From the NCBI RefSeq assembly GCF_003334335.1, contig NZ_QOWQ01000013.1: a stretch of 64,000 bases of DNA. One strand, given 5' to 3'. This document shows positions 2,711 to 46,331 of this stretch, in pieces (position 1 is the first letter of the stretch; each line of letters opens with the position of its first letter). The position numbers and the translations under genes were made by a program. Origin of the DNA: Escherichia coli. Lineage in GTDB: Bacteria > Pseudomonadota > Gammaproteobacteria > Enterobacterales > Enterobacteriaceae. The notes beneath the pieces are model-generated. The model saw nothing but the letters and a program-made list of their open reading frames with translations, was not told the DNA's origin and made no database searches.

Positions 2711-3664
2711 TTACAGCAGATCGCCGATCATTTTTTCCAGTTTTTCCTGGTCAATAGCAAACTTACGGATACCTTCCGCCAGTTTATCTACTGCCATTGG
2801 ATCCTGGTTGTGCTGCCACAGGAACTCGGACTCAGTGATACGCGCCGGACGCGCTTTCACTTCGCCGGTGTAAGACAGTTTACGTTCGATAGCCCCTTCG
2901 CTCTCCGCCAGCTCTTTCAGCAGTGCCGGTGCGATGGTCAGACGGTCGCAGCCTGCCAGTTCCAGAATTTCGCCGATGTTACGGAAGCTTGCGCCCATAA
3001 CCACGGTTTCATAACCGTGCTCTTTGTAGTACTGGTAGATTTCAGATACAGAAACCACGCCCGGATCTTCTGCCGGAGCGTACTCTTTCTTATCGGTATT
3101 CGCTTTGTACCAGTCAAGAATACGGCCAACAAACGGCGAGATCAGGAACACGCCCGCTTCCGCACAAGCACGAGCCTGAGCGAAGGAGAACAGCAGGGTC
3201 AGGTTACAGTTGATGCCTTCTTTTTCCAGCTGTTCTGCAGCACGGATACCCTGCCAGGTAGAAGCCAGTTTGATCAGAATACGATCGTTGCTAATACCAG
3301 CATCGTTGTAGAGTTTGATCAGGCGTTTTGCTTTCGCAATTGACGCTTCGGTGTCATAGGAAAGACGCGCATCAACTTCAGTTGAGATACGGCCCGGAAC
3401 CAGTTTCAGGATTTCCAGACCAATATTTACTGCCAGTTTGTCGGTCGCGTCCACGATCTGCTGCGCGCGATCGTTGCTCTGCTGTTTCGCCCAGGCGACA
3501 GCATCATCAATCAACTTACGGTATTCCGGAATCTGCGCTGCGTTAAGAATGAGAGAAGGGTTGGTTGTGGCATCCTGCGGTTGATACAGCTTCATTGCCG
3601 CGATGTCCCCAGTGTCGGCCACTACGGTGGTGTACTGACGAAGGGAGGTCAATTTGTCCGTCAT
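2711..3664 (-). CDS. talB: transaldolase B
   Basis: ORF 2711..3727 trimmed to [40 protein letters not shown] (317 aa). Confidence 0.95.
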
Positions 3665-3942
3665 GATAGTATTTCTCTTTAAACAGCTTGTTAGGGGGAT
3701 GTAACCGGTCTGCCCTGATGATATCACGACGCAACGTCAGCGCAACCGCCGACAAGACGGTTATCGCCAGGCGAGACTGTTTCGGATTTCTGACACTGCG
3801 TTGATATCGCCCGCCATTTTTATACAAAACCTCATGTATGCTACGCAGAAGTTATCAAGTACCTCGTAGCGTATATACTTCTTAAACAATTGGTAACGTT
3901 TACACAGGAAAGTCATCGCGACCGGCAATAAGAGGGATATGC

Positions 3943-5373
3943 ATGCCAGATTTTTTCTCCTTTATTAACAGCGTCCTTTGGGGATCGGTAATGATTTACC
4001 TGCTCTTCGGCGCAGGTTGTTGGTTCACTTTTCGCACCGGATTTGTGCAGTTTCGCTACATCCGCCAGTTTGGCAAAAGTCTTAAAAATAGCATTCATCC
4101 ACAGCCAGGCGGTTTAACCTCATTTCAGTCATTGTGTACCAGTCTTGCGGCGCGCGTGGGTAGCGGCAACCTGGCCGGCGTTGCGCTGGCTATTACCGCC
4201 GGTGGACCAGGTGCCGTCTTCTGGATGTGGGTTGCCGCGTTTATCGGCATGGCGACCTCGTTTGCCGAATGTTCCCTTGCACAACTTTATAAAGAACGTG
4301 ACGTCAATGGGCAGTTTCGTGGCGGACCGGCATGGTATATGGCGCGCGGGCTGGGGATGCGCTGGATGGGCGTTCTGTTCGCCGTCTTTTTGCTCATCGC
4401 CTACGGCATAATTTTCAGCGGAGTTCAGGCAAACGCTGTTGCCCGAGCCCTGAGTTTTTCTTTTGATTTTCCCCCGCTGGTGACAGGCATTATTCTCGCT
4501 GTCTTTACTCTGCTGGCAATCACTCGCGGTCTTCATGGCGTCGCCCGGCTCATGCAGGGGTTTGTCCCGTTGATGGCGATAATCTGGGTACTGACCAGCC
4601 TGGTGATTTGCGTAATGAATATCGGGCAACTTCCCCACGTCATTTGGTCTATTTTTGAGAGTGCTTTTGGCTGGCAGGAAGCGGCAGGCGGCGCGGCGGG
4701 ATATACCTTAAGCCAGGCGATTACTAACGGTTTTCAGCGCAGTATGTTTTCCAATGAGGCGGGAATGGGTTCGACGCCAAACGCGGCAGCGGCAGCTGCG
4801 TCCTGGCCTCCGCATCCGGCAGCACAAGGGATTGTCCAGATGATTGGCATTTTTATCGACACCCTGGTCATCTGTACGGCAAGCGCCATGCTGATATTAC
4901 TGGCGGGTAACGGCACAACCTACATGCCGCTGGAAGGTATTCAGCTTATCCAGAAGGCGATGCGGGTGCTAATGGGTTCCTGGGGTGCTGAATTTGTTAC
5001 CCTCGTGGTTATTATGTTTGCCTTCAGCTCCATCGTTGCCAACTACATTTATGCCGAAAACAATCTCTTCTTTTTACGCCTGAACAACCCTAAAGCGATC
5101 TGGTGTTTGCGGATCTGCACCTTCGCAACGGTCATCGGTGGCACCTTGCTAAGTCTTCCGCTGATGTGGCAACTGGCAGATATCATAATGGCCTGCATGG
5201 CTATTACCAATTTGACCGCCATTTTACTGCTCTCGCCTGTGGTTCATACCATTGCCAGTGATTATCTACGCCAGCGTAAACTCGGCGTGCGCCCGGTGTT
5301 TGATCCGTTGCGTTATCCGGATATCGGTCGCCAGCTTTCTCGGGACGCGTGGGATGATGTTTCGCAGGAGTAA
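3943..5373 (+). CDS. yaaJ: alanine/glycine:cation symporter family transporter YaaJ
   Basis: 476-aa polytopic membrane ORF; synteny. Confidence 0.9.
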   Translation: MPDFFSFINSVLWGSVMIYLLFGAGCWFTFRTGFVQFRYIRQFGKSLKNSIHPQPGGLTSFQSLCTSLAARVGSGNLAGVALAITAGGPGAVFWMWVAAFIGMATSFAECSLAQLYKERDVNGQFRGGPAWYMARGLGMRWMGVLFAVFLLIAYGIIFSGVQANAVARALSFSFDFPPLVTGIILAVFTLLAITRGLHGVARLMQGFVPLMAIIWVLTSLVICVMNIGQLPHVIWSIFESAFGWQEAAGGAAGYTLSQAITNGFQRSMFSNEAGMGSTPNAAAAAASWPPHPAAQGIVQMIGIFIDTLVICTASAMLILLAGNGTTYMPLEGIQLIQKAMRVLMGSWGAEFVTLVVIMFAFSSIVANYIYAENNLFFLRLNNPKAIWCLRICTFATVIGGTLLSLPLMWQLADIIMACMAITNLTAILLLSPVVHTIASDYLRQRKLGVRPVFDPLRYPDIGRQLSRDAWDDVSQE

Positions 5374-6884: not shown

Positions 6885-8171
6885 TTACTGATGATTCATC
6901 ATCAATTTACGCAACGCAGCAAAATCGGCGGGCAGATTATGCGAAAGCAAGGGTAAATCAGCACGTTCTGCCAGCTCTTTTGGCAGATCCAACGTTTCAC
7001 CGAGAATCGCTTCCACGCTCTCTTTAAATTTCGCCGGATGCGCGGTGCCGAGGAACAAGCCATATTCGCCTGGATTCAACTGGTCACGCAGCGCACGATA
7101 CGCTACGGCAGCGTGCGGCTCCGAAGTGTAGCCCAGTTCTTTTAACTCACGCATTGTCTGTTGCGTGGTTTCATCATCCACGGCTGCATAACCCAGCTCT
7201 TTCAGTTGCCAGATTTTGCGGCGGAACAATTCTTCCACACGCGGCCAGTTGTTCGGCTGGCTCACGTCCATCGCGTTGGATAACGTCGCCTGAGTCGCTT
7301 TGGGTGACCACTGACCGTCGTGCAGGAAACGTGGCACGGTATCGTTCACGTTGGTCGCAGCAATAAAACGTTTCACCGGCAGACCGAGTGACTTCGCCAG
7401 CAGACCCGCCGTCAAATCGCCGAAGTTTCCGCTTGGCACCGAGACAACCAGCTGGTTACGCGCTTCCTGCGGCAGCTGCGCAACAGCTTCAAAGTAGTAG
7501 CAAATCTGCGCCAGCAAACGGCTGATGTTAATCGAGTTAGCTGAGTTTAACCCCAGCGCCACTTTCAGCTCTTCATCATCAAACGCCTGCTTCACCAGCG
7601 CCTGACAGGCATCGAAATCGCCGTCGATGGCAACAGTTTCGATATTGCCGCCCAATGTACAGAACAGTTTTTCTTGCAGTGGACTGATTTTGCCTCGTGG
7701 ATAGAGGATAACCACTTTCACATTCGGTAAACCGTAGAAAGCATGAGCCACTGCCGCTCCGGTATCACCGGAGGTCGCGGTCAGAATGGTCACTGGCTTA
7801 TCGCCCGCAATATGGGTCAGCATTTGTGCCATAAAGCGACCGCCGAAATCTTTAAATGCCAGCGTTGGCCCGTGGAACAATTCCAGACAACCGACATCGC
7901 TTTCAACATTGGCGACCGGAGCCGGGAAGGCAAACGCCGCGCGCACGCGCTCTTCCAGGATTTCCTGCGGGATTTCATCACCAATAAACGCCGAGAGGAT
8001 CTTCGCACTGCGGGTGACAAAATCCAGCTTCAGCATCTCATCAATTTCAGTCAGGCTGAATTCCGGCAGGTCGTGCGGAAAAAACAGCCCCTGATTTTTG
8101 CCCAACCCCTGGGTTACGGCTTGCGCAAAGCTGACCTGCTCATTGTGATCTTTAAGATTGTAGAGTTTCAT
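6885..8171 (-). CDS. thrC: threonine synthase
   Basis: 428-aa [22 protein letters not shown]... Confidence 0.97.
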
Positions 8172-9103
8172 TTAATTTCCAGTACTCGTGCGCCCGCCGT
8201 ATCCAGCCGGCAAATATGAACAAAACCTTCCTGATTTTGCAGGTAGTTCTTACCCAACCAGTCGGCAACGCGCTGGGCGGTATCCGGCTTGTCACACAGA
8301 GCGAACAAGGTCGGGCCGGAGCCGGAGATACCGCTCGCTACCGCGCCGATTTCCGCGACCGCCTGCCGCGCCTGCCGGAAGCCAGGCAGTAACCGTTCAC
8401 GGTAGGGTTCTGCGATAACATCTTTCATCAGCTTCGCGGCAAGCTCAGGCTGACGGGAATAGCAGGCGTGAATGAAGCCTGCCAGATGTCGCCCGTGCGC
8501 AATGCAATCCTGGCGGCGATACTGCGCCGGTAAAATAGCCCGGGCTTCTGCCGTCGAGACTTTAATCCCCGGATACGCCAGCACCCACAGCCACTCATCA
8601 AACCCTGGCACTTGCTGGCTGATGATGTCGTTTTCTTCGATCATCAACTGCATACCACCAAGAAAACACGGTGCCACGTTGTCGTAATGAATGCTGCCGG
8701 AGATTCGTCCTTCCAGCTCGCCCATCAAAGCCAGCAAACGAGTGTCATTAAGCGGCTTGCCACAGTGTTCATTCATCGCCATCAGCGCCGCGACCACCGA
8801 ACAGGCACTGGAGCCTAAGCCCGAACCGATCGGCATATTCTTTTCCAGAGTCATCGCCACTGGAATTTGCTTCCCAAGCTCCTGGCAAAAACGCTCCCAG
8901 CACTGATAAACGATATTTTCCCGTGGTTCTGACGGCAGCTTATCGGCAAAGCGTCCGAGGTTGTTGAGACTGAATGTCTCTGCCGCCTCAACCGTTACTA
9001 CATCTCCGAGCAATGCACCATCAACGGGTGTCACCGCCGCCCCGAGCACATCAAACCCGACGCTCATATTGGCACTGGAAGCCGGGGCATAAACTTTAAC
9101 CAT
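8168..9103 (-). CDS. thrB: homoserine kinase
   Basis: 311-aa [26 protein letters not shown]...; stop overlaps thrC start (ATGA). Confidence 0.97.
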
Positions 9104-9104
9104 G

Positions 9105-11567
9105 TCAGACTCCTAACTTCCATGAGAGGGTACGTAGCAGATCGGCAAAGACACCGGCAGCTGTAACGTCATTGCCCGCACCATATCCGCGCAGCACCAA
9201 CGGCAGCGGCTGATAATAGTGGCTATAAAAGGCCAGGGCGTTTTCGCCATTTTTCACTTTGAACAGCGGATCATTACCATCCACTTCGGCAATCTTCACG
9301 CGGCAGACACCATCTTCATCAATATTGCCAACATAGCGCAAAACTTTTCCTTCATCACGGGCCTTCGCCACGCGCGCGGCAAAGCGATCGTCGAGCTGTG
9401 ACAGATTCGCCATAAAAGCGGCAACATCACCCTCGGCGTTAAACTCTGCGGGCAGCACTGGTTCAATTTCGATATCCGCCAGCTCCAGTTCACGTCCCGT
9501 TTCACGAGCGAGAATCAATAGTTTACGCGCCACATCCATACCAGAAAGATCATCTCGCGGGTCCGGTTCGGTATAACCCATTTCCCGCGCCAGCGTGGTC
9601 GCCTCGGAGAAACTCATGCCTTCGTCTAACTTGCCGAAGATATAAGAAAGCGAACCTGAAAGAATGCCGGAGAACTTCATCAATTCATCACCAGCATTGA
9701 GCAGATTTTGCAGGTTCTCAATAACCGGTAATCCAGCCCCAACGTTGGTGTCATAGAGGAATTTACGCCGCGATTTTTCCGCCGCATAACGCAACTGATG
9801 GTAGTAATCCATCGACGAGGTGTTGGCCTTTTTGTTCGGCGTGACAACGTGGAAACCTTCGCGCAGGAAGTCAGCATATTGATCCGCCACTGCCTGGCTG
9901 GAGGTGCAGTCAACAATGACCGGGTTCAGCAGATGATATTCTTTCACGAGGCGAATTAAGCGCCCGAGATTAAACGGCTCTTTGGCTTGCGCCAGTTCTT
10001 CCTGCCAGTTTTCCAGATTAAGGCCATGCACATTAGTGAGCAGAGCCTTCGAGTTGGCAACGCCGCAGACACGTAAGTCGATATGTTTATTCTTCAACCA
10101 GCTTTGCTGACGCTTCAGTTGCTCCAGCAGCGCACCGCCAACGCCACCGACACCAATCACAAACACTTCGATAACCTGATCGGTATTGAACAGCATCTGA
10201 TGAGTAACGCGCACGCCAGTGGTCGCATCATCGTTATTTACCACGACAGAGATTGAGCGTTCAGAAGATCCCTGAGCAATGGCGACAATGTTGATATTGG
10301 CGCGGGCCAGCGCGGCAAAGAATTTCGCCGAGATCCCACGCAAGGTGCGCATACCATCACCTACCACCGAGATAATGGCCAGCCGTTCCGTCACAGCCAG
10401 CGGCTCCAGTAAGCCTTCTTTCAATTCCAGGTAGAACTCTTCCTGCATTGCCCGTTCAGCTCGCACACAGTCGCTTTGCGGAACACAGAAACTGATACTG
10501 TATTCGGAAGATGATTGCGTAATCAGCACCACGGAAATACGGGCGCGTGACATCGCTGCAAAGACGCGCGCCGCCATGCCGACCATTCCTTTCATCCCCG
10601 GGCCGGAAACGCTGAACATTGCCATGTTATTCAGATTGGAAATGCCCTTGACCGGTAATTCGTCTTCATCACGACTGGCACCAATGAGCGTACCTGGTGC
10701 TTGAGGATTTCCGGTATTTTTAATCAGGCAAGGGATCTGGAACTGGGCGATGGGGGTAATGGTGCGGGGGTGAAGAACTTTAGCGCCGAAGTAGGAAAGC
10801 TCCATCGCTTCCTGGTAGGACATCGACTTCAACAACCTCGCATCGGGCACCTGACGCGGGTCGCAGGTATAGACCCCGTCAACGTCCGTCCAAATCTCGC
10901 AACAATCGGCGCGTAAACAGGCAGCCAGCACCGCCGCGGAGTAGTCGGAACCGTTGCGTCCAAGCACCACCAGTTCGCCTTTTTCATTACCGGCGGTGAA
11001 ACCTGCCATCAGCACCATGTGATCAGCCGGAATGCGACTTGCCGCAATACGGCGGGTGGACTCAGCAATATCGACGGTAGATTCGAGGTAATGCCCCACT
11101 GCCAGTAGTTTTTCGACCGGATCGATAACGGTAACGTTGTGACCGCGCGCTTCTAATACGCCGGCCATAATGGCGATCGACATTTTCTCGCCACGGCAAA
11201 TCAGCGCAGCGTTAATGCTATCCGGGCACTGCCCTAACAAACTAATGCCATGCAGGACATGTTTTATTTGGGCAAATTCCTGGTCGACGAAAGTTTTCAA
11301 TTGCGCCAGCGGGAATCCCGGCTGGGCGGCGGCGAGTCCTGTCAGAAGTTCGGCAAAAATACGTTCGGCATCGCTGATATTGGGTAAAGCATCCTGGCCG
11401 CTAATGGTTTTTTCAATCATCGCCACCAGGTGGTTGGTGATTTTGGCGGGGGCAGAGAGGACGGTGGCCACCTGCCCCTGCCTGGCATTGCTTTCCAGAA
11501 TATCGGCAACCCGCAGAAAACGTTCTGCATTTGCCACTGATGTACCGCCGAACTTCAACACTCGCAT
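9105..11567 (-). CDS. thrA: bifunctional aspartokinase I / homoserine dehydrogenase I
   Basis: ORF 9105..11609 trimmed to [20 protein letters not shown] (820 aa). Confidence 0.97.
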
Positions 11568-11592
11568 GGTTGTTACCTCGTTACCTTTGGTC

Positions 11593-11630
11593 GAAAAAAA
11601 AGCCCGCACTGTCAGGTGCGGGCTTTTTTC
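11593..11630 (-). terminator. thr attenuator (leader terminator)
   Basis: minus-strand AGCCCGCACCTGACAGTGCGGGCT hairpin followed by T8 between thrL and thrA. Confidence 0.85.
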
Positions 11631-11647
11631 TGTGTTTCCTGTACGCG

Positions 11648-11716
<69 letters not shown>

Positions 11717-24699: not shown

Positions 24700-24865
24700 G
24701 CGTAAAATGCCGGATGCGGCGCGAACGCCTTATCCGGCCTACAAAACCAGCAATTTCAATACGTTGTAAAACTGTAGGCCTGATAAGACGCGGTAAGCGT
24801 CGCATCAGGCATTGAGCACCGAATGCCGGATACGGCGTGAACGCCTTTTCCGGCCTACAACAGCC
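24700..24865. repeat. REP/BIME palindromic repeats
   Basis: repeated gccggatgcggcg...cttatccggcctaca and taggcctgataagacgcg motifs. Confidence 0.6.
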
Positions 24866-37830: not shown

Positions 37831-39128
<1,298 letters not shown>

Positions 39129-45959: not shown

Positions 45960-46135
<176 letters not shown>

Positions 46136-46244: not shown

Positions 46245-46331
46245 GCGAAGGTGGCGGAATTGGTAGACGCGCTAGCTTCAGGTGTTAGTGTCCTTACGGA
46301 CGTGGGGGTTCAAGTCCCCCCCCTCGCACCA
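46245..46331 (+). tRNA. leuQ: tRNA-Leu (anticodon CAG)
   Basis: 87-nt GCGAAGGTGGCGGAATTGGTAGACGCGCTAGCTTCAGGTG...CCTCGCACCA; long variable arm; genomically encoded CCA; single copy. Confidence 0.95.

Follow-up and report, generated by a model that had tools for sequence, protein, structure and literature searches.

The window, by which we mean the whole 64,000-nucleotide stretch of Escherichia coli DNA that was analyzed, belongs to the core chromosome and is collinear with the annotated genomes of strains ET201 and GF4-3. Its gene order runs from yaaI through thrCBA-thrL, arcA, and the cre, deo, and prfC genes to tsr, with the thr operon on the minus strand. The operon's leader and attenuator, thrL, is found at 11593..11712, where the sequence matches the Rfam family Thr_leader (RF00506) with 121 bits. 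Next comes thrA (9105..11567), the first gene of the operon, which encodes the 820-amino-acid aspartate kinase/homoserine dehydrogenase I, followed by thrB (9103..8168) for a homoserine kinase of 311 amino acids and thrC (8171..6885) for threonine synthase (428 amino acids). All three enzymes are full length, and with the leader on the same strand they make up a thrLABC operon in which, by the position of thrL, the three genes form a single transcription unit under attenuation. In the mechanical list of open reading frames, thrA was drawn as an 834-amino-acid gene that begins with a GTG at 11609 (9105..11609, minus strand) and runs into the leader region. We rejected that start as an artifact of the ORF caller; the real one is the ATG at 11567 (MRVLKF..., 820 amino acids), as annotated in related genomes.

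The product of thrB is a homoserine kinase of the GHMP family. Pfam domains PF00288 (GHMP_kinases_N) and PF08544 (GHMP_kinases_C) had been precomputed on an identical protein, and the closest solved homologue, the homoserine kinase of PDB entry 4rpf (E = 2e-165), aligns over residues 1-308. In that structure, a single residue follows the aligned leucine (Leu308).

What distinguishes this copy of the operon is the junction between thrB and thrC. In gene orientation, thrB ends with ...GCA CGA GTA CTG GAA ATT AAA TGA, and the thrC frame at the same place reads TAA ATG AAA CTC TAC.... The thrB stop codon (TGA, 8170..8168) has its TG in common with the thrC start codon (ATG, 8171..8169), which makes an ATGA overlap at 8171..8168 on the minus strand; read directly, the plus strand is TCAT at 8168..8171. 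The two genes form an overlapping stop/start pair of the NTGA class, with a spacing of -4. The site of the change, located by alignment and frame analysis at 8172..8179 (minus strand), reads GGAAATTA where ordinary E. coli has GGAAAACTA. There, the new thrB codons ATT AAA specify Ile-Lys. The TAA that had served as the stop (8174..8172) is kept right before the ATG, in the thrC frame only and out of the thrB frame. A reading made by a model from the sequence only had reported a ThrB that ends in ...ARVLEIK with a TGA overlapping the thrC ATG, and direct reading of the frames bears this out.

The sequence-only reading had also stated that ThrB of K-12 ends in ...ARVLEN with a TAA abutting the thrC ATG, and had proposed a small indel or substitution as the difference. 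It was right about K-12: in BW25113, thrB (2801..3733, 310 amino acids) ends in ...ARVLEN with a TAA, and thrC begins at 3734 with no spacer. The alignment to reference junctions that it had recommended took in the window, K-12, EDL933, 21B8, ET734, GF4-3, and ET201. Four ordinary genomes (K-12, EDL933, 21B8, and ET734) have CTGGAAAACTAAATG, whereas the window, GF4-3, and ET201 have CTGGAAATTAAATG, so that among the aligned genomes the shorter junction was confined to these three. Passing from the first form to the second takes a net loss of 1 nucleotide plus a C/T change, equivalent to replacing 'AC' with 'T'. The difference turned out to be an indel plus a substitution.

The window otherwise resembles K-12 in its operon and gene order, in the start codon and N terminus of thrC, and in a weak Shine-Dalgarno-like GGA near the end of thrB. 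The two also have the same thrA/thrB junction, TGACATG. Through E309, ThrB is the same except for E274D, and together with the replacement of the C-terminal N310 by IK this is all that separates the two proteins (308/309 identity); ThrA and ThrC have one substitution each, which in ThrC is T237A. The junctions themselves differ in that the one in the window is one base shorter, with a TGA overlapping the ATG (-4) instead of a TAA abutting it (0). Moreover, K-12 has thrB and thrC in one reading frame, parted only by the TAA, whereas the window has each gene in a frame of its own. In ordinary E. coli, readthrough of the lone TAA would yield a ThrB-ThrC fusion; with the window allele, readthrough of the new TGA would reach another stop after only 17 additional residues.

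Because the junction difference is a plain sequence fact and not a statistical signal, a test against chance does not apply, and its rarity is what counts. An exact 61-nucleotide query centered on the junction recovered the identical sequence from 2 of 5,426 complete E. coli genomes (~0.04%), namely GF4-3, which came from a guinea fowl in the Gambia, and ET201, which came from a frog in China. In both, RefSeq annotates a 4-nucleotide thrB/thrC overlap and an intact 311-amino-acid homoserine kinase, WP_087895265.1, to which ThrB of the window is identical. The window is 99.5% identical to ET201 and about 98.3% identical to GF4-3; since it matches neither exactly, it is a third independent source of the junction. 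The exact 311-amino-acid ThrB was found on 32 contigs (NCBI, ENA, Logan, and UniRef) and is indexed in 66 blocks of an assembly collection. At least seven distinct assemblies with the identical junction were read, and in all seven distinct places, one of which is a metagenome scaffold, thrB occupies 3001..3936 and thrC 3933..5219. Over the 5.4-kb thr region, the draft assemblies GCA_958319345.1 and GCA_043522535.1 match the window at every position (100% identity). The sequence-only reading had held that its observation would fall if reference genomes had the same junction. This came true only for two rare genomes and not for the ordinary references, and because the matches are so restricted, the variant is best regarded as real and uncommon.

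Whether the junction was true strain variation or an error had been left undecided. If it were an artifact of sequencing or assembly, one would suspect a homopolymer miscall in the A-run (GGAAAAC) that made the last codons of thrB look frameshifted, and the change is indeed located at an A4 run, a typical site of indel errors, in an allele that is very rare among complete genomes. But the C-to-T change in the allele means that more than a homopolymer deletion took place, and none of the complete genomes contains GGAAACTAAATG, the sequence that deletion alone would have left. Furthermore, the identical junction comes from at least seven independent assemblies that span different projects, hosts, and continents, and the carriers, which have a linked flanking haplotype structure in common, include both the metagenome scaffold and a short-read-corrected hybrid assembly. 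GF4-3, for example, was assembled with Unicycler from Illumina and Nanopore reads (PMC8115903). The protein is full length and its coding sequence is intact in RefSeq, which is not the picture of a sequencing error or a pseudogene, and we consider an artifact extremely improbable. Recurrence of the junction and of the 311-amino-acid ThrB in independent assemblies, which differ in host, country, and sequencing technology, favors real variation. In our judgment, the thr operon of the window very probably carries a rare but real E. coli allele, one that represents ordinary and likely near-neutral strain variation. The support for this conclusion comes from recurrence across assemblies rather than from the raw reads of the window.

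The origin of the allele can be considered in light of forms that lie one step away from it. Neither the C-to-T change alone (GGAAAATTAAATG) nor the loss of A alone (GGAAACTAAATG) had an exact match among the 5,426 complete E. coli genomes. Given that the two changes are within 2 nucleotides of each other and are surrounded by pentamer quasi-repeats (GAAAT TAAAT GAAAC), a single complex mutation, possibly templated by the TAAAT/GAAAC quasi-repeats, is plausible. Alternatively, two independent mutations may have taken place and the intermediate been lost, with a synonymous change from AAC to AAT followed by the loss of A, or the reverse order by way of ...LETK. Either intermediate would encode a viable protein, and point mutation and homopolymer slippage are both common processes. 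Still, the failure to recover either intermediate weighs against this route, and changes in such proximity are more economically explained as one complex event, so that we hold the two-step origin to be possible but the less likely course. It bears on the origin of the allele only, not on its nature, and it is compatible with a genuine, rare variant of the operon.

The sequence around the junction has something to say about how the allele spread. Apart from the junction, thrB of the carriers is an ordinary E. coli haplotype: the best noncarrier thrB is 99.7% identical, and the differences consist of the gap, the C/T change, and one SNP. Across the 5.4-kb thr region, between 0 and 48 SNPs separate each carrier from the window. 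The upper end of this range belongs to GF4-3, whose divergence from the window amounts to 1.65% over 49 kb. Most of its 48 SNPs fall in thrA, and there is 1 SNP in the 1,289 nucleotides that cover thrB and the first ~230 nucleotides of thrC. The nearly identical ~1.3-kb thrB block in diverged carriers is suggestive of one origin, which would have been followed by descent and by homologous recombination into diverged backgrounds. We also asked, by a strict outlier test, whether the block in GF4-3 marks a recombination tract at thrB. The block contains an 868-nucleotide run identical to the window that ranks in the top three by length in 50 kb, but it did not stand out as unique, there being other equally long runs free of differences between these two genomes.

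Two observations concern thrA in the same genomes. At codon 728 (9384..9386, minus strand), which falls in the homoserine dehydrogenase part of ThrA, the window and ET201 have Arg, and K-12 and GF4-3 have Leu (L728R). We rejected the substitution as a rare, lineage-specific change, since the corresponding 61-nucleotide segment had exact matches in 285 of the 5,426 complete genomes (O26, O103, and others), and also as a change linked to the junction variant, since the allele is common and the carrier GF4-3 lacks it. In KUNK20-1, a carrier represented by an ENA metagenome scaffold (L011, 537..2999), thrA was called as two genes of 83 and 731 amino acids, which suggests a frameshift, a nonsense change, or an assembly error. 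Within the 5.4-kb region, only 2 SNPs, at positions 663 and 683 of that region, distinguish this carrier from the window.

Overlaps of the NTGA type (-4) are the commonest overlap motif in prokaryotes, according to the review by Brown and Wade (2025; PMC12548453), and have been associated with termination-reinitiation coupling (PMC12548453, citing Huber et al. 2019 and 2023). In that review, coupling is described as most efficient at spacings of -4 to +3, and we adopted this range for judging geometry. With its spacing of -4 and a Shine-Dalgarno element inside the upstream reading frame, the thrB/thrC pair has the geometry of a coupled pair, although spacings of -4, 0, and +3 are all inside the published range. 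Like other NTGA pairs, it consists of co-directional genes of one operon that overlap by ATGA, and the second codon of the downstream gene begins with A (AAA, Lys), a requirement of the motif. It departs from them in that the overlap is a recent, rare polymorphism and not a conserved design, and in that coupling between thrB and thrC is putative. The sequence-only reading had called the junction a translational-coupling arrangement; by geometry alone this label is reasonable, and the ordinary TAAATG junction is compatible with coupling to the same degree.

The elements that would guide a ribosome to thrC differ little between the two alleles. The sole recognizable Shine-Dalgarno element is a weak UGGAA at 8177..8181 (minus strand), a prediction only, which is situated within the 3' end of thrB. 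Pairing with the 3' end of 16S rRNA is predicted at -3.3 kcal/mol in both alleles, and the distance from the element to the AUG is 5 nucleotides in the window versus 6 nucleotides in the common allele. Predicted unpaired probabilities are 0.68 for the variant versus 0.75 for the common allele in the Shine-Dalgarno region, and 0.64 versus 0.75 at the AUG, so that any change in local structure and accessibility is expected to be slight.

The title of a 1989 paper by Little et al. (J Bacteriol 171:3518) shows that translational coupling operates in the thr operon, and the coupling reportedly concerns thrA-thrB rather than thrB-thrC. The system is the same operon, and its thrA/thrB junction is unchanged in the window. 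The review (PMC12548453) cites Little et al. 1989 as its reference 60 for coupling in the E. coli thr operon, and thrA or thrB is not discussed in its text. None of the papers that we searched establishes translational coupling of thrB and thrC.

Comparison with other bacteria indicates that the junction has been mobile. In species-representative genomes, we located thrC by its conserved start and then sorted 111 representatives of the Enterobacterales by their thrB stop. In 101 of them the spacing is +3 (...LG TAA NNN ATG). Spacings of +2 (two genomes), +7 (one), and +24 (three Rahnella) account for some of the rest, and a spacing of 0 was seen in four: E. coli and E. albertii (...LEN TAA ATG) along with Citrobacter gillenii and Citrobacter sp. 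Res13-Sevr-PEB04-36 (...LGK TAA ATG). The two Citrobacter genomes have GGGAAAATAAATG as opposed to GGGATAANNNATG, the form typical of the genus, in which the spacing is +3. Their stop shifted independently, and the thrB/thrC junction is evidently labile in evolution. The start motif of thrC is conserved, with ATG AAA at the beginning of the gene in all of the Enterobacterales genomes examined. The tail of ThrB after the conserved Leu308 varies naturally in both length and composition: most genera have G, Escherichia has EN, the two Citrobacter have GK, a Plautia symbiont has E, and the window has EIK. An overlapping thrB/thrC junction was found in none of the 111 species representatives, an absence that could mean that overlap is mildly disfavored here.

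The consensus junction of the Enterobacterales shares with the window a very short distance from stop to start and an SD-like GGA or GGGA motif formed from the last thrB codons. It differs in its 3-nucleotide spacer and in a ThrB that ends in G directly after the conserved leucine. Relative to this +3 state, the Escherichia junction (0) and the window allele (-4) are successive departures. The junction has moved more than once in evolution, and the allele in the window is a further small step in a drift across the Enterobacterales from +3 through 0 to -4.

These comparisons can be put together into a sequence of events. The end of thrB went from GAA AAC TAA to GAA ATT AAA TGA with the net loss of a single base, whether 'AC' became 'T' in one complex event or the loss of A was joined by a C-to-T change. 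The resulting frameshift is confined to the last two codons of thrB; the thrB frame skips the old TAA and ends 4 nucleotides later at a TGA already present inside the thrC start. This latent stop is available because thrC begins with ATG AAA. The cost is one residue replaced and one added at a terminus that is variable anyway, as ...LEN (310 amino acids) became ...LEIK (311 amino acids), and the coding sequence and start codon of thrC are left untouched. The SD-like GGA lies 1 nucleotide nearer to the thrC AUG. In all three geometries (+3, 0, and -4), a ribosome that finishes thrB should still stop atop the thrC start site, and therefore any termination-reinitiation coupling should persist. 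We infer that coupling, where present, would continue and that the allele is most likely near-neutral. The replacement of UAA by the weaker UGA, the altered Shine-Dalgarno spacing, and the slightly lower predicted accessibility could have a modest effect on the ratio of ThrB to ThrC.

It could be argued that the allele is not neutral and that the ATGA overlap, the closer Shine-Dalgarno element, and the UGA stop were selected because they alter the translation of thrC relative to thrB. Under such a scenario, tighter termination-reinitiation would tune the ratio of homoserine kinase to threonine synthase. One study lends weight to this idea: Tian and Salis, as reported in the review, found coupling to be far higher at -4 than at any other spacing (PMC12548453). 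In addition, the allele persists in diverged genomes, into which it was apparently moved by recombination, and there are the small predicted differences in local structure. On the other hand, most of the controlled studies summarized in the same review saw no effect of spacing within -4 to +3 (PMC12548453), the energy of Shine-Dalgarno pairing is unchanged, and thrB-thrC coupling is itself not established in the literature that we found. The allele shows no sign of spread, given its frequency among complete genomes, and no other Enterobacterales representative has an overlap at this place. On balance, an adaptive regulatory allele seems unlikely. We are at least as doubtful of a stronger view, namely that the locus is a natural experiment in the fine architecture of operons, in which an overlapping, coupled gene pair was born within a species, with tighter ThrB-ThrC coupling or an altered ratio; we would give it very little credence. 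If it were true, the ancestral TAAATG and the derived ATGA states would both be segregating in E. coli.

Taken as a probably near-neutral variant, the allele is of limited significance. It already stands in RefSeq and GenBank with a correct annotation, and it is a rare polymorphism of the commonest overlap class in a thoroughly characterized operon rather than a new kind of feature. Beyond annotation its importance is small: one terminal residue is changed, and one geometry compatible with coupling is swapped for another. For curation, the 311-amino-acid ThrB is confirmed as a real variant, not a frameshift error. The locus is also a tidy illustration of how an ATGA overlap can be born: the TGA in the ATGAAA of thrC absorbs a -1 frameshift anywhere in the final thrB codons.

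Several repeats and runs were noted elsewhere in the window. The T-run that follows the hairpin of the thr attenuator (~11600, minus strand; GTGCGGGC-T(n)-CGACC) is 8 T long in the window and 9 T long in K-12 BW25113. Its length is again 8 T in all eight junction carriers in which the motif matched; the carrier L009 had no motif match. A single tRNA-Leu(CAG) gene lies at 46245..46331 on the plus strand, between rsmC and yjjZ. At this locus, ET201 has an IS621 transposase and three tandem tRNA-Leu genes, and GF4-3 has one tRNA-Leu gene; the difference could reflect either a copy-number polymorphism or the collapse of a tandem array in a short-read assembly. Finally, five REP-type elements of ~101 nucleotides are arranged in tandem at 37869..38353, in the interval between yjjW and yjjV, where they match the Rfam family naRNA4 (RF02564). 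Single naRNA4 copies occur at 24777..24855, near nadS and ettA, and at 46023..46105, adjoining the tRNA-Leu gene, and self-similar blocks of the REP type are also visible in the comparison of the window with ET201.
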